Positions 616 through 35,503 of a stretch of DNA of 42,165 nt are shown in pieces. The position numbers were made by a program, and so were the translations under genes. Each line of letters starts with the position of its first letter. Within the stretch, counting starts at the first letter, position 1. The stretch spans positions 1-42,165 of the IMG/VR virus record IMGVR_UViG_3300028042_000003; one strand, given 5' to 3'. Below the pieces are notes generated by a model. It was not told where the DNA came from. It saw only the letters and a list, made by a program, of their open reading frames with translations, and did not search any database. This DNA is from a virus.

Positions 616-1197
616 ATGGGATTCAAAAAACACCTACAAGACTTAGACAACGAAAAAACCATAGTATGGACCTTCGGGAGATTCAACCCAATGACAAAAG
701 GACACGAATTCCTATGGAACGCTGTCACAAAAGAAGGTAAAAAACGCAGAGCTGATTCATGCATATACACAAGTTGGTCGGTGAACGCTAAGAAAAATCC
801 ACTTTCTACACAAGACAAAATTTATTACATGAGAAAAGTTGTCAACAGAGCAACAAGAGTTTCAGATGATTCCTCACTGAAAAATACTCAACAAATAGCT
901 AAAGACCTAATCGCTAAAGGTTACACAAGAATAGTTCTTATGGTAGGAGCAGATCGTCTCAAGGATTTTGAATCTATGAAAAAACAAGTACAAGACTTCA
1001 GTGATGGAGCTTGTGTTCTTGAAGTAGTGTCTTTTTCTGGTAAATCTAGAATAGGTAATTACTCAGGTACAAGGATGCGAAACCTAGCGAAAGAAAATAA
1101 CTTTGAAGAATTCTACGCTGACTTACCTAAAGCTATAAACAAAAAAGAAGCCCAGGACTTATTCGAGAAAGTAAGAATAGGTCTAGGGGTAAAATAA
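616..1197 (+). CDS. HIGH-superfamily nucleotidyltransferase (cytidylyltransferase/NMNAT-like)
   Basis: TFGRFNPMTKGH (HxGH-like), KNPLS, VGADR and SGTRMR motifs. Confidence 0.8.
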   Translation: MGFKKHLQDLDNEKTIVWTFGRFNPMTKGHEFLWNAVTKEGKKRRADSCIYTSWSVNAKKNPLSTQDKIYYMRKVVNRATRVSDDSSLKNTQQIAKDLIAKGYTRIVLMVGADRLKDFESMKKQVQDFSDGACVLEVVSFSGKSRIGNYSGTRMRNLAKENNFEEFYADLPKAINKKEAQDLFEKVRIGLGVK

Positions 1198-1631
1198 TGA
1201 CCTTTACAGAGTTCAATGAAGCATTCAATGATCCGTTTGATTATGTCATAAGAAAAGGTAATAACGTTCTAGAATTTTATGCCGATTTTGGTGACGATAG
1301 CGAAAAAGAACTCGCGGTTTATTTTTGGGATAAAGAAACCCATGTAGAAATTACATTTGAAGTGGACAGCAGTGAGAAGCTATCTGGTAAAGGTGACGCA
1401 TTTAGAATTTTCGCTACAGTAAAAGATGCCATGTTGAAAAACTTGGATTATCTAAATAAATACAAAGACATAAGATTTGAAGCTAAGAAGACCGATAAAT
1501 CAAGAGTAAAACTATACAGAACACTAGCTAAGCAACTCCAAAGAAAACTGGGTCTCAAAGAAGTACAAGAAAGAGATCAAATACATAATATTCTTTTTAT
1601 AATAAGTAATGGGGAACACGATTATGAGTAA
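1197..1631 (+). CDS. Hypothetical protein, paralogue family A copy 1 (DUF6934-like)
   Basis: GKGDAFRIFATV and SRVKLY motifs shared with three other ORFs. Confidence 0.7.
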   Translation: MTFTEFNEAFNDPFDYVIRKGNNVLEFYADFGDDSEKELAVYFWDKETHVEITFEVDSSEKLSGKGDAFRIFATVKDAMLKNLDYLNKYKDIRFEAKKTDKSRVKLYRTLAKQLQRKLGLKEVQERDQIHNILFIISNGEHDYE

Positions 1632-2049
1632 GTTCACAGAGTTCAATGAAGCATTCAATGATCCGTTTGATTATGTCAGTGAAAAACGTGGACGCTCTCT
1701 GCGTTTTTTAGCTTCTTATGGGGACGATAACGAAAAAGAACTTGAAATCTATTTTTGGGATTATAGAACCTACGTTGAGATTACATTTCAAGTAGACAAT
1801 AGCGAAAAACTCACCGGTAAAGGTGACGCATTTAGAATATTCGCTACAGTAAAAGATGCCATGATAAAAAATCTAAAACACCTAAATCAATACAAAGACA
1901 TAAGATTTGAAGCAAATAAGACCGATAAATCAAGAGTAAAATTGTACAGAACACTAGCTAAGCAACTCCAAAGAAAACTGGGTTTAAAATCAGTGGAAGA
2001 ACATGATCAAAAGAATGATATACTTTTTATAATAAGTAATGGAGAATAA
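1624..2049 (+). CDS. Paralogue family A copy 2 (recent tandem duplicate of copy 1)
   Basis: ATG at 1624 (MSKFTEFNEA) after GGGGA; long DNA identity with 1197-1631. Confidence 0.7.
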   Translation: MSKFTEFNEAFNDPFDYVSEKRGRSLRFLASYGDDNEKELEIYFWDYRTYVEITFQVDNSEKLTGKGDAFRIFATVKDAMIKNLKHLNQYKDIRFEANKTDKSRVKLYRTLAKQLQRKLGLKSVEEHDQKNDILFIISNGE

Positions 2050-2050
2050 T

Positions 2051-2467
2051 ATGATTAAATTCAAATCATTCAATGAATCTTTCGACCAACCTTATGCTTT
2101 CAAGAAAATGCCATCAAAGGATGGACTGATGTTCAAAGCTGATGTTGGGGATAAAAAACTAATTATCCATCTAAGTGACCGTAGTGAGTGGTATGTTGGT
2201 ATTATTTTTAGTCTAGACAACGCTGACTTTCTTACGGGTGAAGGTAACGCGTTTAGGATTTTTGCTACTGTAAAGAAGGTTATTTTTGATAACCTAAGTT
2301 TTGTCAAGAAGTTCAATAATATTCAGTTTCAAGCTGATAATTCGGAGACGTCAAGAGTGAAATTGTATAATCTTATTGGAAAACAACTAGCTAAAAAACT
2401 TGGGTTGTCTTTGAAAATTAGAAAACAAACAAATTATACAGATTATATCATAGCGGACAAACCATGA
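2051..2467 (+). CDS. Paralogue family A copy 3
   Basis: GGAG SD, ATG 2051 (MIKFKSFNES); TGEGNAFRIFATV, SRVKLY. Confidence 0.7.
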   Translation: MIKFKSFNESFDQPYAFKKMPSKDGLMFKADVGDKKLIIHLSDRSEWYVGIIFSLDNADFLTGEGNAFRIFATVKKVIFDNLSFVKKFNNIQFQADNSETSRVKLYNLIGKQLAKKLGLSLKIRKQTNYTDYIIADKP

Positions 2468-3234
2468 ATTTCAAACAAACAATAAACGAAGAACAAGAAA
2501 TTCTTTTGGAGTACACAAAACACAATATTTCTGAACTTATAGCTTCGGGTTCAATCCCTCTAGCCGCAGGTATGATGGATCGTTTGGGGTTTTTAGAAAA
2601 GGATCAACTGGCATATCACGTCACAAACTTTGAGTATCTCAAAGAACTAGCAAGTAATCAGCACAAAAAGAAACAAATTTCTTGTTTCACTAAAGGTGGA
2701 CCTGAATTACTAAGACTACCAAGTCAACCAAATATACTAATGATGCTAAAAGGAACTACGGTCATAAAAGGAAAAACTGACATTTGGACCTTAGTTTCTA
2801 CTAGGGACAGAAGATGGCTAGACATAAACCCAAAAGGATATGCTGGAGCCAAAGCAGACAAATTATTATTCTTGGTGCAAGGGGTTTTGAATTCTGTAGC
2901 TAAGAGAGCGGATATATTTGTTGATGCTTATGGTGACTCTTCTTTGATAAAACAGACAATAGATAACCTACCTGGGAAACAAAAAATTATTTTGTATAAA
3001 TCGTATCTCCAAGAAATGGAAAATATGTTGAATAAACATTATAAAGTTCTAATTGCGTATATCAACGACGCAGCCGAATGGGATTACAATGAAGTTATCC
3101 TAACCAGATGGGAAATTATGGATGTTTGGTGTATCGAATACGATGATAATGTCACTACTCATTTATTGAATAAACTCAACCTCCCGTTTGCTGGAGTAAT
3201 GTCAAAACGAGACCTAAAGGACCTAAAGATATGA
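2464..3234 (+). CDS. Hypothetical virion-associated protein, possible ADP-ribosyltransferase fold
   Basis: YHVT...ISCFT...YNEVIL motif order; ATGA-coupled at both ends. The fold call is tentative. Confidence 0.4.
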   Translation: MNFKQTINEEQEILLEYTKHNISELIASGSIPLAAGMMDRLGFLEKDQLAYHVTNFEYLKELASNQHKKKQISCFTKGGPELLRLPSQPNILMMLKGTTVIKGKTDIWTLVSTRDRRWLDINPKGYAGAKADKLLFLVQGVLNSVAKRADIFVDAYGDSSLIKQTIDNLPGKQKIILYKSYLQEMENMLNKHYKVLIAYINDAAEWDYNEVILTRWEIMDVWCIEYDDNVTTHLLNKLNLPFAGVMSKRDLKDLKI

Positions 3235-3725
3235 GATTCAAAGAATACCAAAAAACTCAAAACGAAGCCTTCGACAACCCATACCCAATTAGACATGATA
3301 ACAAAGGAAAATATAGTCAGTGGTCATTTGTAACCGATGATGATGTATTTTACCTAGTTACTGTAGACCACAACTCCGAGACAATAAGAGGTCAAAAGTA
3401 TAATTATGTTCAAATAAACTTTGAAAACGAACAAGGTAAAATGTCTATTACACACACCGGTGATGCCTTTAGGGTATTCGCTAGTGTTTTTGCTATACTA
3501 GCAAAAGAAGGCAAAAAAATTCAAAAAGCTGATTACATAACATTTGCTTCTGCTAGTAGTGAGCCTTCAAGGGCTAAACTCTATGATAGATTCGCAAATA
3601 TTCTAAAAAAGCAAGGTTACAAATACCAAATGAAGATAAAACAACACAGCGACTGGCATTACTTGTTGTCTAAGAAAGACATACTAGACGAAATTCAAGT
3701 AGCTTACTCAAACGACCCAGTATAA
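3231..3725 (+). CDS. Paralogue family A copy 4 (divergent)
   Basis: NEAFDNPY, THTGDAFRVFASV, SRAKLY. Confidence 0.7.
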   Translation: MRFKEYQKTQNEAFDNPYPIRHDNKGKYSQWSFVTDDDVFYLVTVDHNSETIRGQKYNYVQINFENEQGKMSITHTGDAFRVFASVFAILAKEGKKIQKADYITFASASSEPSRAKLYDRFANILKKQGYKYQMKIKQHSDWHYLLSKKDILDEIQVAYSNDPV

Positions 3726-9211: not shown

Positions 9212-10642
9212 GTGAAAGAAATACAAGTAATAAAATCCAAGGGACACAAAGTAAAATTCAACCCTGAGAAGATCACAGAACGAACACTCCAAGCGTGTGA
9301 AAACCTTACTGGTGTATCGGCTTCTCAAATAGAAATGAACGCCAACTTGAACATCCAAAATAATACAACCACAAGAGATATTCAACAAGCAATGATTTCA
9401 TCAGCTGCTGAACTTATTTCAGAAGAAACGCCTAATTATGAGTTTGCCGCTGCTAGGCTTTTAAACCAACAAATAAGAAAAGACGCTGGCGACAGCTATG
9501 AGCCAATGGACTTCTATGCGTCAATCCAAAAGAATATCAAGTTGGGGTTGTATGACCCTAGTATTCTTGAATCTTACACCCGTGAAGAAATTGATTACTT
9601 TGGTTCTAAAATAAAATACCAACGTGATGACACTTTCGCTTACACGGGGTTGAAACAACTAGCTTCTAAATACCTTATCAAACAAGACGGAAAGGTAGTA
9701 GAAACACCACAAGCAATATTTATGTTGATGCAGATGTATATCTTTGCGGATTACGTTACGAAGTACGACCAAAAAACAAGAACCAAATGGGTGCTAGAGG
9801 GATATAGGGTGTTGTCAACACATGAAGCATCTTTACCTACACCCGTTATGAACGGTCTAAGAACCCTTTTCAAAAGATTCATCAGTTGTAACCTCATTGA
9901 CGGCGGAGATACTACAAATTCTTTATCTTTAGCTACTGCGTTTATTATGATGATGACAGCTAACAAAAGTGGGATTGGTATTTCGGCTACTTCGATAAGA
10001 GGGCTTGGTGCTAACATTGGACCAGGCAGAGTGAAACATACCGGTATTTTGCCTATTGTCAAAGCATGGCAAGCGGCAACTGGCGCATTCACACAAGAAG
10101 GTAGAGGTGGAGCAGCTTCTGTATCTTACTTATTTTTCAATTACGAAGCAGATCTTATTATGCAACTTGGTAATGCTAAAGGAACAGAAGATACAAGAGC
10201 CCGTCATATAGACCATACAATGGTGTTCAATAAATTATTCTTTGACCGTGTGAAAGAAGATGGAGACATTACATTATTCCACATGAACGAAGTACCAGGA
10301 CTAGAAGCTCTAATTGGTAAACCTGAATTTGATGATTTGTATATAAAATATGAAAAGTCAGTTTCAAAAGAACATAAGCAAACGGTCAAAGCTAGAGAAT
10401 ACCTGTCTAAGTTTCTAAATGAGAGATTCCTTCAAGGAAGAATGTATTTTACATTTGCTGATAACTGTGACCAACAAGGTCCATGGAAAATACCAGTTTA
10501 TGTCAGTAATTTATGCCTTGAAATATTGGTGCCGATAAGTCCATTGGATCACACCCCCGTCGAAACAAAAAGAGTAAGAGTAAAAAAAGAAGACTACGAC
10601 GAATACATAAAACTAAAATACCAAAACGGTAATGGAAAATAA
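9212..10642 (+). CDS. nrdA: RNR alpha subunit, N-terminal fragment (NrdA-a)
   Basis: GTG start; ATP cone; PTPVM, FISCNL (C225 equivalent), SNLCLEI (N437/C439/E441 equivalents), then stop. Confidence 0.93.
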   Translation: MKEIQVIKSKGHKVKFNPEKITERTLQACENLTGVSASQIEMNANLNIQNNTTTRDIQQAMISSAAELISEETPNYEFAAARLLNQQIRKDAGDSYEPMDFYASIQKNIKLGLYDPSILESYTREEIDYFGSKIKYQRDDTFAYTGLKQLASKYLIKQDGKVVETPQAIFMLMQMYIFADYVTKYDQKTRTKWVLEGYRVLSTHEASLPTPVMNGLRTLFKRFISCNLIDGGDTTNSLSLATAFIMMMTANKSGIGISATSIRGLGANIGPGRVKHTGILPIVKAWQAATGAFTQEGRGGAASVSYLFFNYEADLIMQLGNAKGTEDTRARHIDHTMVFNKLFFDRVKEDGDITLFHMNEVPGLEALIGKPEFDDLYIKYEKSVSKEHKQTVKAREYLSKFLNERFLQGRMYFTFADNCDQQGPWKIPVYVSNLCLEILVPISPLDHTPVETKRVRVKKEDYDEYIKLKYQNGNGK

Positions 10643-11458
10643 ATGTATCATTATACATACAACATAATAAATCTCCAAACAATGAAAAAATACATTGGGG
10701 TGAGGTCATCTGAGTTATCACCAGAGGATGATTTAGGTGTTTATTATTTTTCGAGCTCGGCTAATACTAATTTTATAAAGAGTCAGAAAGATACCCCAAG
10801 TGATTTTCATTATGATGTATTGGGTGTTTTTGATACAAGAAAAGAAGCAGCAAACCATGAAATTGAACTACACAATTTTTATAATGTTGGCTCAAATCCG
10901 GAGTTTATAAATCAATGTAAATCAATATCCACTGGGTATAGCACTTTGGGTACCAAACATACGAACCCAAATAAACCTGGAATAAATAACTCTAACGCTA
11001 AACAGAAGATAGTTTATTTGTGGGACACCAGCATTCTAAAATGTGATGGAAATATAACATCATTTTATAGAAATGTAAACTCAAACGCAATAATAAAAAT
11101 AGAGGATTACAAAAACCAAAAATATCATTCTTTATATAAAAACGAAATAATAAAAATTTATGATTATATTCCAAATCATACATTCTTGAAAAAGACACAT
11201 AATGTGATAATAACACCCAACAATGGAACCTTTTATTTTTGTGGAAATATAGGCTCATTCAAAGACAAAATAAAAAATAGTAGATCAAAACAAATAAAAT
11301 ACAAAATTTCAAATGGCTATCCTATTCATTTGAACATTACTAACAAACCACCAGCAGTTTTTACTTTGAACGATGTAGAATGTCCTAAATGTGGAAAGAC
11401 TGGAACTTCCCGCCAAATGACCAGATATCATTTTGATAATTGTAAGAAATCTAAATGA
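10643..11458 (+). mobile_element. GIY-YIG (Seg-like) homing endonuclease inserted in nrdA
   Basis: YHYTY..N....KKYIGVRS, YFSSS, EA..HE; C-terminal CPKC..MTRYHFDNC. Confidence 0.8.
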
Positions 11459-11613
11459 TTACTCAACAAGAGATGGAACTCATAGAAACTATTGCGGATT
11501 TCAAAGAGCGAATAACGAAAACAAGCGGTGTTGATGAAGAGTGGTATCAAGAGAAGATAGACGAGTTAGAAGACCTACTCGAGATAATAAAAGAAAATAA
11601 AGGAACATTATGA
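11455..11613 (+). CDS. 52-aa acidic helical ORF between the endonuclease and nrdA-b
   Basis: Read manually (MITQQEMELIETIADF...KGTL); ATGA overlaps at both ends. Confidence 0.55.
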   Translation: MITQQEMELIETIADFKERITKTSGVDEEWYQEKIDELEDLLEIIKENKGTL

Positions 11614-12620
11614 TAACAAATTTATACGAAATAGTAGACAAAAACGAACCAGAAGAAGAGGGGTATTACTACTTTGACGAATCTTTTGGAATAAACAATT
11701 CACCTATGGCATCAGCAGAAGTTGGGTGCTGTATCCTAGCAGCGATGAACCACGGAAAAGTAACAGACGAAAGAGTACCGGTTGTATCAGAATATCTTGT
11801 ACGTTTCTTAGATAATATGATTGATTACATGGATTACTCACATGAAGAAATTGAACGTCCAGCTAAAATGAGAAGAACCCTTGGGATTGGTGACTCAGAT
11901 GTATTCCATTACCTAGCTAAAAATAAAAAATTCTACAACACCCAAGAAGGTCGCGAATTTATGCACGCAAGAAAAGAGCTTATGAGCTTCCATCTCCATA
12001 GAGCGAGTATTCAATTAGCAGAAGACTTTGGTGCTTGTGAACTTATAGCAGACACTAAGTACCAAGATGGTTGGTTCCCTATTGATAGCTACAACAAAAA
12101 TACAGATGAGCTTATATCACAACCACTTAGACAAGATTGGGAAAGCCTAAGAAAGCGTCAAATACAGTTTGGACAACGTCACAGTACTCTCCAAGCAAAT
12201 GCGCCCGTTGCTAATTCAGCTAAACCAAGTGGATCAACAAGTGGAATAGAACCACCACGTTTCTTAGCTACGGTAAAAGAAGATAAAACAATAGTTACTC
12301 AGTTGGTTCCAGGCTATCAAGCACTAAAACACCAGTACACCACAGCATGGTCACCTGAATTCAATAACATAGATTACTTCAAATTTGTATCATTGATTCA
12401 AAAATTTGTAGACCAAAGTATGTCTACTAACCAGTACACTGAACTAGCAAGATACGAGAACCAAAAGGTTCCATTGAGTGTCCTAGAAGATGAGTTTTTT
12501 ACTGCTAAACGATACGGTCTCAAAACGATGTATTACCAAAACACAAGAGCAGCAGACCTAAAAGATGGTCTTGAAGAAGAAGCATCAGATGCTTGTGGGT
12601 CGGGAGGGTGTAGCATATGA
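11610..12620 (+). CDS. nrdA: RNR alpha subunit, C-terminal fragment (NrdA-b)
   Basis: Own AAAGGA SD + ATG; EVGCCIL (C462 equivalent), RTLGIG, SGIEP, GLKTMYY, terminal CGSGGC. Confidence 0.93.
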   Translation: MITNLYEIVDKNEPEEEGYYYFDESFGINNSPMASAEVGCCILAAMNHGKVTDERVPVVSEYLVRFLDNMIDYMDYSHEEIERPAKMRRTLGIGDSDVFHYLAKNKKFYNTQEGREFMHARKELMSFHLHRASIQLAEDFGACELIADTKYQDGWFPIDSYNKNTDELISQPLRQDWESLRKRQIQFGQRHSTLQANAPVANSAKPSGSTSGIEPPRFLATVKEDKTIVTQLVPGYQALKHQYTTAWSPEFNNIDYFKFVSLIQKFVDQSMSTNQYTELARYENQKVPLSVLEDEFFTAKRYGLKTMYYQNTRAADLKDGLEEEASDACGSGGCSI

Positions 12621-12910
12621 TAATATCTGCATCTAGTGACCTTATAATTATAATGCTACATGAACAACGAAACGAAATGAATCATAGGGCTCCAGCTAAA
12701 ATACATAAGCTCAATGTGACTAAAAACATGATACCTGATAATTTATTTGTGTCCAAGTTTGAAGAAGGTCACACCGTTTATACCATCGAGATAAATGAAT
12801 TCAGAATTAGGTCCAAGAATGTTTCCCTAATTGAAAAACTTTATGAAATTTTATTAGGTGACCTAAAAGAAAAAACCCTGGAGGACGTGTTACCTGAGAT
12901 AGCACTTTAG
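12617..12910 (+). CDS. Hypothetical protein
   Basis: ATGA-coupled to nrdA-b; ends VLPEIAL. Confidence 0.55.
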   Translation: MIISASSDLIIIMLHEQRNEMNHRAPAKIHKLNVTKNMIPDNLFVSKFEEGHTVYTIEINEFRIRSKNVSLIEKLYEILLGDLKEKTLEDVLPEIAL

Positions 12911-13848: not shown

Positions 13849-14174
13849 TAGGAACATTTCTTTTTGGGTTGACAATAGGAGTTATACTAGGTGGGGTTAT
13901 TGGATTAGTATATAGCAGAACAGCTACACTTACAGATTTGATATCTAGAGTAGATAAAATCAAGTTTGATATGGAGGTTTTGTCAACAGAGCGAAACTTT
14001 TATAAAGGTGAATTAGAAAAACAAAAAAAGTGGGATGATTTTTTACCTACCCAATATCCTCAACACCAACCTCCAGAGCTATTCAACGCTAATCTCAAAA
14101 AGGACGAGAAGGGCAAATTCAACCCAGATGACGTTCCTGGAGTATTTGATGGAGTATTTGGAGAGATAAAATGA
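13845..14174 (+). CDS. Membrane-anchored coiled-coil protein
   Basis: N-terminal Gly-rich TM helix. Confidence 0.6.
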   Translation: MIGTFLFGLTIGVILGGVIGLVYSRTATLTDLISRVDKIKFDMEVLSTERNFYKGELEKQKKWDDFLPTQYPQHQPPELFNANLKKDEKGKFNPDDVPGVFDGVFGEIK

Positions 14175-14359
14175 GTTTCAACACAACCACAAGCACATAT
14201 ACGGATAGATACACAATCGGGACGACCGTCTCGTCGCTAAACCAATCTAAATCTGAAATTATCATAGAAGCAGATGGAGAGCGTATTGTGATTACTGCCA
14301 GAATGCTAAAGAGAATGATTGAACTAATAAAAAGAGAATTTCCAGAGGATGAATTATGA
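14171..14359 (+). CDS. Hypothetical protein
   Basis: ATGA coupling; ends EFPEDEL. Confidence 0.55.
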   Translation: MSFNTTTSTYTDRYTIGTTVSSLNQSKSEIIIEADGERIVITARMLKRMIELIKREFPEDEL

Positions 14360-28395: not shown

Positions 28396-28832
28396 TATTG
28401 TCCTTCTAGGTTTTGTATTCTTAGTTCAAGTGCTGCGATTTTTGCGTCAACATCTTCTTTTTTGTAAAATGCTGCTACTGTCTCTGATTTAGAGTATGTG
28501 TCTTGCTTAGTAGTGTATTTTTGATCTGCTTCTGTTTTATCTAAAAACTTGAAATCACTCTCTGGTTTTGTATAAACATCAGATGCCTTAGCAAATCCAG
28601 GAATCATAAGTTCTACTTTGGATGTAAGAGCATCTACGGCCATTCTAATTTCTGTTACTTGTTTTAGGCTGGCTACTTTGCGTTCATCTAATATGTCAGA
28701 ACGATCAATAACGTCTTCCACAAGTAGTAATTCGTTATAAACAGCTTCAACAAAAATCCTTAGATCACTTGCGTCAATTCTGTTTGTTTGATTTTCTCTA
28801 AATTTATCTAAAAGTATATTTTTTGAGTTCAT
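28395..28832 (-). CDS. Short fibre-like protein
   Basis: Y(T/S)K.E.D repeats; N-terminal domain shared with neighbours. Confidence 0.6.
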   Translation of the reverse strand: MNSKNILLDKFRENQTNRIDASDLRIFVEAVYNELLLVEDVIDRSDILDERKVASLKQVTEIRMAVDALTSKVELMIPGFAKASDVYTKPESDFKFLDKTEADQKYTTKQDTYSKSETVAAFYKKEDVDAKIAALELRIQNLEGQ

Positions 28833-28841
28833 GTTGGTCCT

Positions 28842-29804
28842 TTATTTTATTTCGCCAAAAGCGTTTATCCATGATGAGATTTTAGAGTTGAACCATAATG
28901 GAAGTGAAAGTGTCTCGTCAAAAATCATTTGTCCAGGATATGGATTTCTTGGTCTTTCTGATCTTTCAACATTAGGAATTACTGGTGAGTTTACCCATGC
29001 TCCGTCGACAAATAGTAAACCATCACCAGTTGATGGTGTTTTTACTTTTGTGTCTTCAAGTGCTGCAATTGAATCTATAGAGTCTTTCCAATATCTTGCT
29101 CCAAGCTTTGTGCTTCTTAGAACTTGATCATCTTTTGATGGTAGACCTAGTGAGTTTTCTTTTCTTCTTAGTACATTAGAATTATTAAGAGCCAATGAAG
29201 TAATTGCTTTAGTATTCTCAAAGCCTTCATTTACTTCTGTTGAAGTAGCTATTTCTAGTGTTGATACTTCGCCCTTTGGACCTACTAAAGACCCAATATT
29301 AGACCAAATATTACCATCCCATGAGTAACCGTCTCCGGTAGATGATTCAATGTAGATAGTTCCTACACTTTCATGCAAAAGATTTAGAATTTCAGTTTTG
29401 GATAGCTTACCCTTTATGAAGTACCCGTCTCTAATATCTGTCCAAAATGGTCCATCTACTGATTGGTGTAATACATTTCCTGGCTTTCCCTCTACTAAAA
29501 CACTAATGTCATTGATCATTTCCAAGTCTGCTTTAGCTGGTTTGTCAACTTTAGCTAGATATAATCCTGGATTTGTTTTTGTTATAATGACAATATCACC
29601 CTTTTGGATAAATATTTTAGCTTCTGGTGCTGATGATAAACGGAATTGCTCTACATCCTCTATAGACTCGAACTTTCTGATGATACTCTCTGTAGACTCA
29701 AAAATAGCATCCACAAAGATTTGAAAATCTTGTGCTGAGATGTTTTGTGTCAAGTTGGGGTCAAATATATTTCTAATAATATTTTGAATATTTTTTGATG
29801 CCAT
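28842..29804 (-). CDS. Fibre-like structural protein
   Basis: Shared N-terminal domain; GPKGE; IATSTEV..G....AIT fibre repeat; RP.NP.PGQMIFD.TL..P.W. Confidence 0.65.
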   Translation of the reverse strand: MASKNIQNIIRNIFDPNLTQNISAQDFQIFVDAIFESTESIIRKFESIEDVEQFRLSSAPEAKIFIQKGDIVIITKTNPGLYLAKVDKPAKADLEMINDISVLVEGKPGNVLHQSVDGPFWTDIRDGYFIKGKLSKTEILNLLHESVGTIYIESSTGDGYSWDGNIWSNIGSLVGPKGEVSTLEIATSTEVNEGFENTKAITSLALNNSNVLRRKENSLGLPSKDDQVLRSTKLGARYWKDSIDSIAALEDTKVKTPSTGDGLLFVDGAWVNSPVIPNVERSERPRNPYPGQMIFDETLSLPLWFNSKISSWINAFGEIK

Positions 29805-29820
29805 GGGTTTCCTTTTATGT

Positions 29821-29828
29821 TATTTATA
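29821..29828 (-). promoter_or_regulatory. T4-type late promoter
   Basis: TATAAATA on the - strand. Confidence 0.75.
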
Positions 29829-29831
29829 ACC

Positions 29832-31727
29832 TTAGAAGGATTCCGATACTCCATAATCATCATTTACGCCTTGAAATTCTAGTCGCATAAGCCTAAGTTC
29901 TTCAGCTTTTTGGTCTGAGTCATCGTCATCACTGGTGAAACCTATATCAATACCCGTTAGATATTCTTCGGTTCTCACGTTAGAATCAATTACTCTCAGT
30001 TCTTTAGTAAATAATTCAAAGTTATCAAATACTTTGATGGACATAAATGGAGCAAAAACGAATGATAATGACATAACCGCATCATCGAAGTAACCATCTT
30101 CCGCTTCGTATTTATTTCCAGTTTTTCTTTTAGTAAATGTGTAAAGTTGATTTAGGGTATGTTGACTATTGACAACAAGCTTCCCTTCTTCTATGAATAT
30201 TTTGAGCATATTCAATACTAGGGGTCTACTTTTTTGAGTAGTTCTGAAACCCGTATATTTCTTTTTACCTGGTCTTCCGTCAATGTTACTATCTCGGAAT
30301 AAGTTTTCATACTCATATACTCCCCAGAGCGTATCTGATACTGATTGTCCTGCACCTTCGTTATTCTCTATAATCATCAGGGCAGTGTTGTAATATGTAC
30401 CTAGTTCAAATAGATGCTCGGGCATCATTAGGTAATCAATTTGAAGTTTAGCGGTGAATACTTGCTCAAATGGAAAGCTAGTAACGTCAACAATATCAAC
30501 ACTAAATTCATCAATCCCGTCTTTACTAGGGTCTACTGTACAAATATAGGTATGGTTTTCCTGAGCTTCTTTATACATCGTACCGTCATTTAGAATTACT
30601 TGCGGTATAACAGTCACGTTTTCCATGTGGTCTTGAAGTTCTTTTAGAGCGATACCTGAGATTAGCGTATCACTTGATCCAAGAAATGTACATTCTTCAG
30701 TTTGTGCAAAGTACTTCTTACCGTATTTTTTTATTGTAATTTTTTTATATTCTTCGGGAGTGAGTAAATCACCTTGTTTGTTGTAATGAGGAACATCTCT
30801 CCAAGAACACGTGATGTATCGTTCTGGTGTGTCTTGTCTTTTTGCTGCCTTGACAATTTGTTCGAAGTGGTTCATACCATTTGCGGTACTGGTCATGATT
30901 ACTTGCTTAAAAGATAATGAGTTCATTGTAGGCATTACTGAGTCTACAAATTCATCCCAAAGGCTTTTTTTGATGTAGGCTGTTTCATCTACGTAAATAA
31001 TGTTACAAGTAAATCCCCTGAAACTATCTGAAGAAGGTCCATCGGTCATTATTCTTGTTCCATTTTCAAATTCTATTTCACCTTTGTTCCAAACTTCTAT
31101 TCCCTTTTTCATCCATACTGGTAAGTTCAGATATATCTTTTTGATTTTGTCAAGAACCTCACGGGCTGTTTTTGCTTTGTTGGCGACAATACCAATCATG
31201 GTTTGTTCTTCACGGAATAAAGCTAACCACAAAAGATAAGTACCTGATGTGACAGTTTTACCAGATTGTCGTGGATATAAAATAACCGTATCATCTAAAG
31301 TCAAAAGCTCATCTTCAAGATCTTCTTGATAAGGTCTAGGTTCAGGTCTAGCAAGACCACTTTTCGTAGTTATTATACAATAATGTTTTCTGAAATATTT
31401 GTAATCATTTTTACATTTATCTATTTCATTAGTGTGAATCTTAGAGAGTGGTAATTCAGTTCCAGCTCTTGAAAGGTATCTGTTACCATTTTGGGAAATT
31501 CTATTCCCATAGAGATCTTTATAATAACCATTTTGATTTAGCTCAAGGTCTAGTAAAGCTTTGAGTTGGTCGTGTTCTTGGTCGGTCCATGTTTGTTTAT
31601 TCAAACAGAACTTTTGAAAAATGGGGTCAGTTTGAACTGATTCACGTATCTCAGCTGTAGGTAATGTTCTAGCTATTTGTTTATCTTGGAGCTTATTTCC
31701 TATAGTGAGTATTTGATTGGGAGTCAT
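29832..31727 (-). CDS. terL: Terminase large subunit (T4 gp17-like)
   Basis: RPYQ, PRQSGKT (Walker A), IIYVDE (Walker B), TSTANG, TVDPS, DDAVMS. Confidence 0.95.
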   Translation of the reverse strand: MTPNQILTIGNKLQDKQIARTLPTAEIRESVQTDPIFQKFCLNKQTWTDQEHDQLKALLDLELNQNGYYKDLYGNRISQNGNRYLSRAGTELPLSKIHTNEIDKCKNDYKYFRKHYCIITTKSGLARPEPRPYQEDLEDELLTLDDTVILYPRQSGKTVTSGTYLLWLALFREEQTMIGIVANKAKTAREVLDKIKKIYLNLPVWMKKGIEVWNKGEIEFENGTRIMTDGPSSDSFRGFTCNIIYVDETAYIKKSLWDEFVDSVMPTMNSLSFKQVIMTSTANGMNHFEQIVKAAKRQDTPERYITCSWRDVPHYNKQGDLLTPEEYKKITIKKYGKKYFAQTEECTFLGSSDTLISGIALKELQDHMENVTVIPQVILNDGTMYKEAQENHTYICTVDPSKDGIDEFSVDIVDVTSFPFEQVFTAKLQIDYLMMPEHLFELGTYYNTALMIIENNEGAGQSVSDTLWGVYEYENLFRDSNIDGRPGKKKYTGFRTTQKSRPLVLNMLKIFIEEGKLVVNSQHTLNQLYTFTKRKTGNKYEAEDGYFDDAVMSLSFVFAPFMSIKVFDNFELFTKELRVIDSNVRTEEYLTGIDIGFTSDDDDSDQKAEELRLMRLEFQGVNDDYGVSESF

Positions 31728-32078: not shown

Positions 32079-32624
32079 TTATCTTGGGATGCTTTTTGGT
32101 ACATTTTTAGATATATAGTTCAACTTACCATTTAAACGTTCTGCTTTTCTTGGACTAAAAATAGCTGTTATTTCTTTGTGTAGGTCTTTTATTGATGTGT
32201 GAATATTTTTCACTACACTCACAGTTCCTTTTGCTAGCTGTACCAATTTCTTTTCGATGTCCCATCCAGTTATAGAATGAACTATTTCTAGTGGACTTGT
32301 GATAATACCTAATGTGACTTTATCAAGCTTTACTAAAAAATCAACAAAGTCGTTTCTAGTTATTTTAGCAGCGTGCTTTCTTATCTCGTCAGGTTCTCCA
32401 TTTATAGCAGACATTACCACTTTACCAGCTACTGTGGTGAAATCAGCAAAATAATCAATAAGACCTTTATCTGGTCTTTCTGGAAGTCCTAGTTTATTCA
32501 TGAAAGATCCAAAGTCTTCTTGTAGTTCCTCATTTATTTGCGCATCTTGATTTTCCATTACAAAAAGCAACATTGCTACTTTTTCTTTTACTTCTTGTTC
32601 TTGTATATAATTAGTGAATTTCAT
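32079..32624 (-). CDS. Hypothetical late protein
   Basis: N-terminus MKFTNYIQE. Confidence 0.6.
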   Translation of the reverse strand: MKFTNYIQEQEVKEKVAMLLFVMENQDAQINEELQEDFGSFMNKLGLPERPDKGLIDYFADFTTVAGKVVMSAINGEPDEIRKHAAKITRNDFVDFLVKLDKVTLGIITSPLEIVHSITGWDIEKKLVQLAKGTVSVVKNIHTSIKDLHKEITAIFSPRKAERLNGKLNYISKNVPKSIPR

Positions 32625-33525
32625 TTATTTCCTTTGATTTTGTTGTTGATTCATATGGATGATAGTCTGGTCTTTCTTTTATTAGAATATCTTCTGGGCC
32701 TGATATTATTGGTTCGTCTCTACCTGGCATTGATCCTCTACCGGACGCATCAAATGTTCTTTGTTTTACAGTTACAATACCATCTTTTTGGTCTATATTC
32801 CAATAAGCCGCAAGTTTAGCATCTGATATACGTTTCTTGTCCCAGATGTTCATATAAATGCCTATGGTATCTAAAGCACCGCTAAGACCAATAGGGCTGT
32901 ATATATTTCCTCTTACTGTAATTTCAAAACTTACGTTGATAACATTGACCTCTGTTGTTTCGAAGTTATCTAAGATTTCAAATTCTGGGTCAGCAATAAG
33001 TATTTGTGTTTCTGTTGTATCCAAAAGTGGAAATTCTTCAATTTCAAGGTTCAAAGTAGGGTTGAATTTAGCCAGGATTGTTTCAACAATTTGGGTAGCT
33101 GATGTAAGACCTCTAGCTTGTAATAAAAGCCTAAAGTTGAAATCATAAGATAAACTATTATAAGCGAAGTTCATACGGTCTTTTATTTGACCATCCTTTT
33201 TACTGGTTTCAATGAGCTTACTGAATTTTTGGTATTTTTGTGTTTGGCGGTCAGCCACTTTGGTAAGACCATCGAAGCTTAGAACCAAACGAGGCAAGAA
33301 GTTAAAATTCATTTTGGTAATATCGTCTTCACTTAGGTCTTCAATTACTAACGCTTTTTCATAGTTTCCAAATGAAATTGGAACTGTAAATGATTTTTCG
33401 TTGGATTCATTTTCTACATAATTATGAACCTCATTGAAAGCGTTCAGTAATGCTAGTGTGTAATTCCTAGTTGAATTGAAATACATCACGTCTTTGTAAT
33501 TGCCTTCTGCACCTTGTGATATCAT
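32611..33525 (-). CDS. Tail sheath stabiliser/terminator (T4 gp15-like)
   Basis: YFNSTRNY....F, VPISFG, LPRL, QIVETIL..FNP. Confidence 0.8.
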   Translation of the reverse strand: MISQGAEGNYKDVMYFNSTRNYTLALLNAFNEVHNYVENESNEKSFTVPISFGNYEKALVIEDLSEDDITKMNFNFLPRLVLSFDGLTKVADRQTQKYQKFSKLIETSKKDGQIKDRMNFAYNSLSYDFNFRLLLQARGLTSATQIVETILAKFNPTLNLEIEEFPLLDTTETQILIADPEFEILDNFETTEVNVINVSFEITVRGNIYSPIGLSGALDTIGIYMNIWDKKRISDAKLAAYWNIDQKDGIVTVKQRTFDASGRGSMPGRDEPIISGPEDILIKERPDYHPYESTTKSKEINEIH

Positions 33526-33541: not shown

Positions 33542-33549
33542 TATTTATA
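33542..33549 (-). promoter_or_regulatory. T4-type late promoter for gp15
   Basis: TATAAATA on the - strand, divergent from the early promoter. Confidence 0.75.
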
Positions 33550-33577: not shown

Positions 33578-33602
33578 TAAGGTATATTATGTTATAATAG
33601 TA
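33578..33602 (+). promoter_or_regulatory. Early promoter of the small-gene island
   Basis: Identical to 5089-5113. Confidence 0.8.
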
Positions 33603-33630: not shown

Positions 33631-33864
33631 ATGACAAAAACATTTATCACATTCGGTAGTAACCATCTAGAGAATTTTGATGTACATTCAATGAGTGTAA
33701 TGCTTCAAATTGAAAATAGAAACGTTCATATGAAAGATGAAGAACTAGGCATCAAAGAGAAATTTGCGTTTGAATACCCAATGGCAGAAGCAAAAAAACT
33801 AGCAGAAAAGTATAATATGAAATTATATACAAGAGAAGAACTATTAGCATTGAAGGATAAATAA
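33631..33864 (+). CDS. Small phage hypothetical protein
   Basis: AAAGGA SD; FITFGSNH...FAFEY. Confidence 0.65.
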   Translation: MTKTFITFGSNHLENFDVHSMSVMLQIENRNVHMKDEELGIKEKFAFEYPMAEAKKLAEKYNMKLYTREELLALKDK

Positions 33865-34160
33865 TGGCTAAACTCAGACCAGTAATGGCACTGAACCTAA
33901 AGCATTATTCGTTTTATTATACAAAAGATGGAATGATCTCAACGAATAAACATTGGGGATTTGTCAAGACAGACAGAATTATTATGACTTCAACCACTAA
34001 AGCGCTACAAGTTATAGGTATAGTGAAACATTTTGAGCATGATAAATCACAGTTAGAATTTACACCACAACTGATGGAAAATTGGCTTGAGACAAAAAAG
34101 AAGAGAACAGTTATTTCACTAGATAATTTTATATCAGATCACCCTGAATATTTTCTGTAA
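33864..34160 (+). CDS. Small protein ending HPEYFL
   Basis: TAATG coupling; shared C-terminal motif. Confidence 0.7.
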   Translation: MAKLRPVMALNLKHYSFYYTKDGMISTNKHWGFVKTDRIIMTSTTKALQVIGIVKHFEHDKSQLEFTPQLMENWLETKKKRTVISLDNFISDHPEYFL

Positions 34161-34168
34161 GGATCAAA

Positions 34169-34372
34169 ATGAAAAAAGCCAAATTGGTAACACTAGCTAG
34201 ACATAAAAAATACCTAATAAGTTCATTTACCGGTCCTATATTTATTGAGTATTCATATGATTGTGGGTTTTGGGTAAACTCAGGTGAATATAAAAAATTC
34301 AATATTATTAGAATAGTCAGAGAATACGTAGAAATCCTAGATGAAAAGGATTACCCAGAATATTTTTTATAA
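34169..34372 (+). CDS. Small protein ending YPEYFL
   Basis: AAGGA SD; shared C-terminal motif. Confidence 0.7.
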   Translation: MKKAKLVTLARHKKYLISSFTGPIFIEYSYDCGFWVNSGEYKKFNIIRIVREYVEILDEKDYPEYFL

Positions 34373-34380
34373 GGAATAAA

Positions 34381-34593
34381 ATGAAAAAAGTTAGATTATG
34401 GGATTTGGATAAAGATAAGAAATACATAGTTCAATTACTTGGTCATAATCCCGAATTTATTGAATACAATAAAGTATCGGCTGGTTGGGCACCTTCTAGA
34501 TTAGTAGAAGATGGTAACAACACTGGAGCTAAGCTTTACCTAATAATGGTAGATTTATACCCAGAAGAAGATTACCCGGAGTATTACTTATGA
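34381..34593 (+). CDS. Small protein ending YPEYYL
   Basis: AAGGA SD; shared C-terminal motif. Confidence 0.7.
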   Translation: MKKVRLWDLDKDKKYIVQLLGHNPEFIEYNKVSAGWAPSRLVEDGNNTGAKLYLIMVDLYPEEDYPEYYL

Positions 34594-34805
34594 GACAAAA
34601 AATCAAGTTCAATGACATCAACGCAAATGATCTAGTAAAACTTTTTGATTACTCTGTAGTCAAAGTCACCCGAGTGGAATATATCCGAGAAGGAACATTC
34701 CAAATTTTCTATAGGGCTGTTTGTTCTAGTGAGATGGGATTTTGCTCTAGCTCCAACATAATTGAAAAGTTAGAGCCCGATAAATACCCTGAATATTACC
34801 TCTAG
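34590..34805 (+). CDS. Small protein ending YPEYYL
   Basis: ATGA coupling; shared C-terminal motif. Confidence 0.7.
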   Translation: MRQKIKFNDINANDLVKLFDYSVVKVTRVEYIREGTFQIFYRAVCSSEMGFCSSSNIIEKLEPDKYPEYYL

Positions 34806-35503
34806 CCTAGACTTCCAAATGCTCCACCTGAATCACTTTTTTTATCACCCTCTAAGTTTTGAGTGTCTTTGACTATATCAAGTTCCTTGAAAAAGTCATC
34901 AATTTGGCTTGTATCTACTTCTTCATCGTACTCAAATATCTCAGTTTCTTCTAACTTGATTGAACTTTTGATACTAGAAACACTCTCATCACTTTGATTT
35001 GGGGTGTAAAGTTTACACGACAATTTATAAGAATTTGGATTATCAGCGTATGTGAATTGATTTGATATTCCCAAGTCGAAGCTTTCTACATTTGTTACCT
35101 CAAGTATTTGTCCACCTGGTGTCAAAAGAAGACTATTCAAAACTTCACTTCTTGCCCCTCTTTTAGTAAGAAATTCAGGGTATAAAGATAATAAACTTGC
35201 AGCCGAAATAAATAATTCTGTACTATATGCTTGAAACATTCCAAACCCACCAAATGAAACTTCTCCATTGAAGTTCTCTTGGTTTTCGGGTAATAATGTA
35301 ATTTGTTTATAGTCTTTATTTACTTTGAAATGGGAGAAATCTTTGAAGCAGGTGTTATCTTCATTGATTCTCTCGGAGAATAGCCAAAGACATTGAACTC
35401 CATAAATAGATATCATTTCGTCAATAAGGTGACCATCGAGGTCTCTTTCTGGTTTCCGTGATTGATTTAAATTGAAGCTCATAGTTGATCCTTTAGTTGC
35501 CAA
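34802..35503 (-). CDS. Neck protein (T4 gp14-like)
   Basis: LIDEMISIYG...F..FG...EVT.VE...YKL.C..Y pattern; true start may be the second Met (MSFNLN). Confidence 0.7.
   Translation of the reverse strand: MATKGSTMSFNLNQSRKPERDLDGHLIDEMISIYGVQCLWLFSERINEDNTCFKDFSHFKVNKDYKQITLLPENQENFNGEVSFGGFGMFQAYSTELFISAASLLSLYPEFLTKRGARSEVLNSLLLTPGGQILEVTNVESFDLGISNQFTYADNPNSYKLSCKLYTPNQSDESVSSIKSSIKLEETEIFEYDEEVDTSQIDDFFKELDIVKDTQNLEGDKKSDSGGAFGSLG

Follow-up and report, generated by a model that had tools for sequence, protein, structure and literature searches.

The window studied here covers the opening 42,165 nucleotides of a virus record of 125,228 bp (IMG/VR record IMGVR_UViG_3300028042_000003), which is approximately 70% complete and belongs to an uncultured T4-like phage. 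Its positions 33631–34805 hold a set of five operon genes on the + strand, lying between two late genes on the − strand (Table 1). The last four of these genes (open reading frames ORF1 to ORF4) encode small proteins that share a C-terminal tail, ending in HPEYFL, YPEYFL or YPEYYL. ORF4 is the final gene of the operon, with no + strand gene downstream, and it converges with the neck gene such that the two stop codons interlock in CTAG (34802–34805). A preliminary description of the locus, made from the sequence, had reported the four endings, their position flush with the stop and the Pro, Glu and Leu codons used, all of which are exact, together with the use of all three stop codons, which the four ORFs indeed show (TAA, TAA, TGA and TAG).

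The tail stands on about 30% of the genes, directly before the stop codon

Counted over the whole record (~197 genes, 38,977 residues), which is the scope of all genome-wide counts given here, the tail takes the form [Y/H/F]-P-E-x-x-L and ends 57–58 of the ~197 genes (~30%). The peptide PEY[FY]L occurs in 26 copies over the six frames, all on the + strand and 26/26 directly before a stop codon, and the strict motif [YHF]PE[YLF][YFL]L is found 34 times at a C-terminus and never inside a protein. The tail had been suggested to be phage-wide and strictly C-terminal, and these counts bear that out. In line with this, the comparison with a shuffled background that had been proposed as a check reveals an extreme enrichment: [YHF]PE..L-stop occurs 54 times, whereas 100 dinucleotide shuffles average 0.32 copies and never exceed 2, so that the feature is much larger than first seen. 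Additionally, 56 of the 197 genes end in PE..L, against 0.04 expected from amino-acid composition. Because so few such ends are expected, two weaker versions pointed out earlier, LPEIAL and FPEDEL (12617–12910 and 14171–14359), both of which fit PE..L-stop, are, from their sequence, probably real diverged members.

Within the tagged set, the information content stays at background up to nine residues from the end and then rises abruptly, giving the consensus [K/Q][E/K]x[Y/H/F]-P-E-[Y/L]-[Y/F]-L over the last nine residues, with Leu as the final residue in 56/57 tails. The tagged proteins are 60 to 313 aa long (median 83–84 aa), their isoelectric points spread from acidic to basic, and they are predicted to be soluble, almost none having a membrane-like segment. 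A member of a tagged paralogue cluster in IMG/VR 3300028042_000053 (10152–10430) ends in FMEYYL, with Met replacing the otherwise invariant Pro.

Codon usage points to selection on the peptide

At the 38 junctions where the stop codon overlaps the next start codon as ATGA, the Pro-Glu pair of the tail is encoded by CCG/CCA GAG (genome-wide, CCG accounts for 4% of Pro codons and GAG for 22% of Glu codons), which places GGAG or AGAG 8 nt before the next ATG as the Shine-Dalgarno sequence of the following gene. Specifically, the TGA of ORF3 overlaps the ATG of ORF4 (ATGA, 34590–34593), and GGAG at 34578–34581, 8 nt before this ATG, is the ribosome-binding site of ORF4; ORF3, the gene that overlaps ORF4, is the only one in the operon that uses CCG GAG, the tails of ORF1, ORF2 and ORF4 being encoded by CCT/CCA GAA. 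The arrangement of a translationally coupled junction, a stop/start overlap with a purine-rich site 5–10 nt upstream, is thereby found at ORF3/ORF4 and at 38 junctions genome-wide. The tail could accordingly be a by-product of a nucleic-acid element, either a Shine-Dalgarno/ATGA restart module or a recombination boundary for the shuffling of cassettes, and related contigs do hold the same arrays. On the other hand, at 18 non-overlapping junctions Pro-Glu is mostly encoded by CCA/CCT GAA, which is the normal usage of this genome, and the peptide is unchanged; ten tagged genes, ORF4 among them, keep the tail without a close downstream gene; 19 untagged genes are ATGA-coupled without a tail; and across the tagged genes six different Leu codons and all three stop codons are in use. 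Since codons return to normal usage away from the overlaps, the tail persists without a downstream gene and ATGA coupling occurs without the tail, selection, as read from codon usage, acts on the tail peptide, and the ribosome site is a secondary use. The earlier proposal that the peptide rather than a DNA site is conserved therefore stands, and a nucleic-acid element as the main cause, largely refuted by codon usage, is highly improbable.

Table 1. Positions of the tagged operon, its surroundings and the other genes and sites referred to in the text (numbering of the whole record, whose first 42,165 positions are the window)
Feature	Position	Strand	Details
Putative promoter TGTTATAAT, extended −10, sigma-70 type	33590–33598	+	Perfect match, 33 nt upstream of the first operon gene
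First operon gene, 77 aa	33631–33864	+	No tail (ends LALKDK); weak match to PHROG 13997 (E 1.6e-4), function unknown
ORF1, 98 aa	33864–34160	+	Ends SDHPEYFL; tail codons 34140–34157, Pro CCT, Glu GAA, Leu CTG, stop TAA
ORF2, 67 aa	34169–34372	+	Ends KDYPEYFL; tail codons 34352–34369, Pro CCA, Glu GAA, Leu TTA, stop TAA
ORF3, 70 aa	34381–34593	+	Ends EDYPEYYL; tail codons 34573–34590, Pro CCG, Glu GAG, Leu TTA, stop TGA
ORF4, 71 aa	34590–34805	+	Ends DKYPEYYL; tail codons 34785–34802, Pro CCT, Glu GAA, Leu CTC, stop TAG
T4 gp15-like tail sheath stabilizer (flanking late gene)	32611–33525	−	PHROG 227, E 7.5e-26
Late promoter TATAAATA of the gp15-like gene	33542–33549	−	Late-type box, motif match
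T4 gp14-like neck/head-closure protein (flanking late gene)	34802–35503	−	PHROG 679, E 5e-16
Diverged tail member, 97 aa	12617–12910	+	Ends VLPEIAL
Diverged tail member, 62 aa	14171–14359	+	Ends EFPEDEL
TGNTATAAT sites in the window	5101, 8046, 12938, 33590	+	
Other tagged arrays with TGNTATAAT before their first gene	62185, 84631, 86614, 116434	+	TGNTATAAT 16–36 nt upstream of this gene
DNA polymerase	72120–74804		Ends EIDIW
Three other proteins with an acidic-Trp tail	100275–101885, 103698–104093, 61860–62126		End LDEW, EEIW, IDEW
Sliding clamp of the phage	113117–113809		
Zincin-VWA protein	90648–92066		DUF2201_N (E 6e-23) and DUF2201 (E 5e-9)
MoxR-like AAA+ ATPase	95516–96631		AAA/AAA_5 matches, AAA_5/AAA_3-type

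The tagged bodies are mostly unrelated in sequence

After removal of the last seven residues, the 58 tagged bodies fall into 51 BLAST components, and 85 tagged bodies, related contigs included, fall into 74 clusters in an iterated profile search. None of the 58 proteins, ORF1 to ORF4 among them, matches a Pfam or PHROGs family at E ≤ 0.001. Among 5.8 billion proteins ORF1 finds no homologue but itself, and the same type of search with ORF3 returns nothing beyond one copy of 91% identity that lies on a contig of 1.7 kb; a blastn search of the operon island against a phage collection gave no match, and a scan of viral contigs found no relatives with the gp15-like neighbour. Within the operon, ORF2 and ORF3 are tandem paralogues that share 36% identity end to end (BLASTP of the tail-less bodies, E 4e-4). 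Between the ORF2/3 body and the body of ORF1 or ORF4, hhalign gives a probability of <1% and no profile similarity.

The AlphaFold2 model of ORF3 (predicted local distance difference test, pLDDT, 82; predicted template modelling score, pTM, 0.68) consists of five short strands followed by helical turns in the tail, where the pLDDT of 76 indicates a less confident helical end that is not predicted to be disordered. Its resemblance to Tudor/SH3-like barrels is weak (Z up to 3.1, VIA-align wide; template modelling score, TM, ~0.5), and Foldseek finds no match to this model in the PDB at E ≤ 0.001. The ESM Atlas model of ORF4 (pTM 0.67) aligns with SH3-like barrels at TM 0.65–0.75, specifically the EF-P N-terminal domain, the RapA Tudor domain and YajC; the best matches align residues 1–63, and the tail lies outside the aligned part. 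For ORF1 the models are unusable (AlphaFold2 single-sequence pLDDT 40; Atlas pLDDT 0.39). Given the paralogy of ORF2 and ORF3, and given that small β-barrels are predicted for both ORF3 and ORF4, the word "unrelated" used earlier for the bodies is too strong, although the dissimilarity first noticed holds for most of them: the bodies are mostly unrelated in sequence and less diverse at the fold level.

The tail recurs in related phages with a different last residue

The same tail is found in gene arrays of two uncultured contigs. A near-identical strain (ENA contig k141_1058094) shows 27 differences in 1.67 kb, 24 of which fall inside ORF2 and ORF3; the last six residues of both proteins are unchanged, the tail of ORF1 has one synonymous Pro change, ORF4 is identical, and the neck gene differs at one site only. 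The differences at 34169–34593 are concentrated mainly in the 3' half of ORF2 and the 5' half of ORF3, with synonymous and non-synonymous changes mixed, and from this pattern the segment looks like a local hotspot, either of diversification or of recombination within the paralogous pair.

Judged by its tail sheath (46% identity), Vibrio phage Va1 is the closest relative in culture. In its genome (MK387337.2, 194.9 kb), 72 of the 331 genes (22%) end in PE-x-x-[I/L], 69 of the 72 with Ile, the consensus being [H/Y/F]PE[L/E/Y][F/L]I and the tagged proteins reaching 379 aa. The 72 tagged bodies form 65 BLAST clusters, none of them resembles any tagged body of the present phage, and the ten largest have no Pfam or PHROGs match. 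The proteins common to the two phages number 33 and are mostly T4 core, replication-and-repair and ribonucleotide reductase proteins, with a few of unknown function. Many of the 72 Va1 ORFs are unannotated because the GenBank record has 135 features only, and these include all the tail ORFs in a run around the Va1 gene for a zincin-VWA protein (~177600–186063). The tail is probably also present in the close cultured relatives of Va1, namely Pv27, phiKT1024 and phiTY18. The last residue has changed in concert between the two lineages, Leu in this phage and Ile in Va1, across dozens of unrelated bodies, and this switch therefore suggests, at the level of sequence, co-evolution of the tail with one shared reader.

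A putative extended −10 promoter precedes the tagged arrays

On its + strand the whole record has 29 copies of the extended −10 motif TGNTATAAT (the tabulation covers + strand sites), almost always between genes, and the sites mostly lie 16–36 nt upstream of the next + strand gene, which is often the first of an operon. The copy in front of the tagged operon, TGTTATAAT, was missed by a generic promoter scan because that scan requires a −35 hexamer. Besides the first genes of other tagged arrays (Table 1), the motif precedes the genes for the zincin-VWA protein (90648) and the MoxR-like ATPase (95516) and replication genes. Judged by this placement, TGNTATAAT probably represents the early or middle promoter class of the phage. 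The tagged proteins had been called early, and the extended −10 promoter is the one feature that points to such expression; a search for sequencing runs listed no RNA run and one DNA run, which may be the source sample.

The tail as a probable handle for one shared partner

Of the C-terminal code proposed in the preliminary description, the phage-wide, C-terminal and peptide-level character stands, and the hub is putative. The bodies had also been taken for effector domains, a putative role for proteins of which none matches a known family. Taken together, the results lead us to favour, with moderate confidence, the reading that the tail is a common handle for one shared partner and that ORF1 to ORF4 are ordinary members of a large accessory set; that a single reader exists is what we infer from these patterns. 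The tagged set (57–58 of ~197 genes here, 72 of 331 in Va1) would then comprise small, soluble, fast-evolving accessory proteins, probably transcribed by the host RNA polymerase from the extended −10 promoters. The tail would be appended after a folded body and retained by selection at the peptide level, its silent positions doubling at ATGA overlaps as the Shine-Dalgarno sequence of the next gene, and one partner would give dozens of proteins the same fate, be it capture, processing, timed removal or delivery.

Several observations weigh against a handle of this kind and fit an origin of the set in a single, hyper-diverged paralogous family that descends from a small β-barrel gene, the tail being a structural C-terminal cap that needs no separate reader. 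Seven tandem paralogue pairs, ORF2/ORF3 plus six elsewhere, make common descent possible; ORF3 and ORF4 are predicted from their models to be small β-barrels, ORF3 with five strands and a tail that is not predicted to be disordered, and many of the small tagged members may share this fold or an origin; the lengths lie in a narrow range around the median; and a lineage-specific expansion from a founder gene, occurring independently in each phage, could give Leu here and Ile in Va1 without any reader. Nevertheless, the bodies of ORF2/3 share no profile similarity with those of ORF1 or ORF4, the 85 bodies remain in 74 profile clusters, and single members grow to 313 aa here and 379 aa in Va1. Additionally, conservation halts abruptly nine residues from the end, the structural neighbours of ORF4 align without the tail, and a structural cap need not occupy the very last residues, yet the strict motif is terminal in 34/34 cases. 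We thus regard descent from one barrel family as rather improbable.

The partner could also belong to the host, the tail being a degron or docking peptide for a host protease, chaperone or RNA polymerase and the Leu/Ile switch reflecting a difference between hosts. Such a tail would set the time at which early proteins are removed, or direct them to a target in the host. Free hydrophobic C-termini are a classical recognition feature of bacterial proteases, as in ssrA-type and tail-specific protease signals, and the tag-like properties that speak for a handle apply here as well; within the ~70% complete record, neither a PDZ domain nor an S41 protease turned up. Against a host factor, a phage-encoded reader may be missing from a record of this completeness, and we know of no degron that the tail matches. 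We consider a host-directed tail possible, and clearly less probable than a handle in the general sense. Docking to the sliding clamp, by contrast, or to a partner of the type bound by single-stranded DNA-binding protein (SSB), is very improbable. The idea, which had been among the hubs put forward at first, is recommended by analogy: T4 gp45 and the partners of bacterial SSB receive their clients through short peptides at the C-terminus. The clamp is an unlikely hub, given that a different, acidic-Trp tail (EIDIW, LDEW, EEIW and IDEW), which fits clamp clients better, takes the place of PExxL on the DNA polymerase and on three further proteins; moreover, the gp32-like protein (113945–114868) ends in DEFDL, and no tagged protein matches a replication family. 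A weak radical-SAM-like ORF (99505–100278; 24 bits, short of the Pfam cut-off) immediately follows the final gene of the large tagged array and precedes a gene that ends in the acidic-Trp tail; this ORF may be part of a DNA-modification cluster and not of the tail system.

A MoxR AAA+ ATPase and a zincin-VWA protein are candidate readers

The densest tagged array of the phage contains the genes for the zincin-VWA protein and the MoxR-like AAA+ ATPase, with eleven tagged genes between them, and a Pfam scan of the large proteins of this array identified these two only. In the zincin-VWA protein, residues H85/E86/H89, D345/S347/S349, T403 and D427 are present and (nearly) invariant in 58 homologues, so that the two-gene module has its HExxH zincin motif, a full metal ion-dependent adhesion site (MIDAS, DxSxS...T...D) and a MoxR-type AAA+ partner. 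Both proteins are among the 33 common to this phage and Va1. In addition, in the metagenomic contigs that hold the closest zincin-VWA homologues (39–46% identity), small genes ending in PExx[L/I/V] adjoin in 4/4 informative cases, and both the pair and the tail are absent from Campylobacter phage NCTC12673.

MIDAS sites bind an acidic residue of their ligand, as in integrin I domains and midasin. The invariant Glu and the free carboxylate of the tail make its binding to such a site plausible. We tentatively propose that the tail reader is the phage MoxR AAA+ ATPase together with the zincin-VWA protein, which is the best candidate, a host factor being about equally likely. In this case, a client would be held at the intact MIDAS site by its invariant Glu or its terminal carboxylate, then remodelled by the MoxR ATPase and clipped by the HExxH domain of the zincin. 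More speculatively, a phage-encoded, tag-directed machine might activate or erase a third of the proteome, comprising dozens of host-takeover proteins, on one schedule, with tail and reader co-evolving. A complex prediction of the zincin-VWA protein (with Mg and Zn) and ORF3 scored 0.00, which speaks neither for nor against binding.

Other points count against the assignment of the reader to this pair. The two genes are adjacent, without a shared C-terminal tail in the genome, in PBS1, Aeromonas phage phiA019, Moorella phage MTATph1 and Alteromonas phage AD45-P4. The tail-bearing genomes may all belong to one T4-like clade, and the pair and the tail could therefore be merely co-inherited. Where 25–30% of the genes are tagged, any given gene can be expected to have a tagged neighbour fairly often, and other candidate readers may be missing from the ~70% complete record.

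As an observation of its own, MoxR directly abuts unusually large tagged genes in both phages: in Va1 (28480–30787) a tagged protein of 379 aa is encoded downstream, and in the present phage (94453–97044) the MoxR gene is flanked by tagged genes for 313 aa upstream and 137 aa downstream. The large MoxR-adjoining tagged proteins of the two phages have no detectable homology.

Comparison with known systems

The nearest published ideas are found in two studies, neither of which describes a tail common to a large fraction of genes (PMC7159879 and PMC7824862). FxSxx-COOH peptide-processing modules have been linked to bacterial vWA-MoxR ternary systems (Kaur et al. 2020, PMC7159879); they occur in multicellular bacteria with one precursor gene per locus and VMAP or FtsH, often together with a radical-SAM/SPASM maturase (PMC7159879). 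The likeness to the present phage lies in small, fast-diverging proteins of which only the C-terminal peptide is conserved (here the last ~nine residues, on 51–74 body clusters), and in a zincin-like metallopeptidase and a vWA-MoxR pair in the same genome. The difference lies in the number of tagged genes, which is in the dozens per phage, in the lack of VMAP, and in the motif itself, which is [YHF]PExxL rather than the FxSxx, RxD or acidic motif of VMAP- or FtsH-ternary systems; cleavage of the tagged proteins is putative. In group 2.2 jumbo phages, a pair of a MoxR AAA+ ATPase and a metallopeptidase-vWA protein has been described, with a proposed role in virion assembly and without tagged clients (Iyer et al. 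2021, PMC7824862). The same two-gene module is present in the genome studied here, in which it is split by the eleven tagged genes.

Comparable docking peptides are those of T4/RB69 gp43, gp33 and gp55 for the clamp and the tip of SSB, which likewise lie at the extreme C-terminus, are common to otherwise unrelated proteins and serve one hub. These motifs mark a handful of replication and transcription proteins, whereas the phage tail marks ~30% of the genes, none of them with a known family; and the bearers of the T4 gp45-client motif are the DNA polymerase and late-transcription factors, whereas the polymerase here ends in EIDIW. The capsid-targeting sequences of T4 internal proteins are N-terminal, mark a small number of proteins made late in infection, and are cleaved off by the prohead protease. 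They resemble the tail in that one short peptide sends unrelated phage proteins to the same destination, and differ in that the tail is C-terminal and found on dozens of genes behind sigma-70-type promoters.

In the literature searched, we found no description of the motif, of shared C-terminal tails on small phage proteins or, in papers on Va1-type phages, of such a tail, in agreement with the initial impression that the motif is undescribed. To our knowledge, the small early genes of large phages are for the most part without known function or any feature that connects them. Here, one six-residue tail links ~30% of the genes of one phage and 22% of those of Va1, which implies a single undescribed shared step; identification of the reader would in one stroke place well over a hundred uncharacterized proteins in a shared biology, and a portable tag for the control of proteins in infected cells is possible. 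Because Va1 is in culture and carries the tail, the question is directly testable at the bench.

Other features of the window

Two further features of the window lie away from the tagged operon. At 1197–3725, four adjacent + strand ORFs (1197–1631, 1609–2049, 2039–2467 and 3231–3725) share an N-terminal FNEAF-D-P motif and form a separate small paralogous family near TATAAATA boxes. At 9212–12620, the large subunit of ribonucleotide reductase is apparently split into two ORFs by an intervening ORF of 271 aa (10643–11458).

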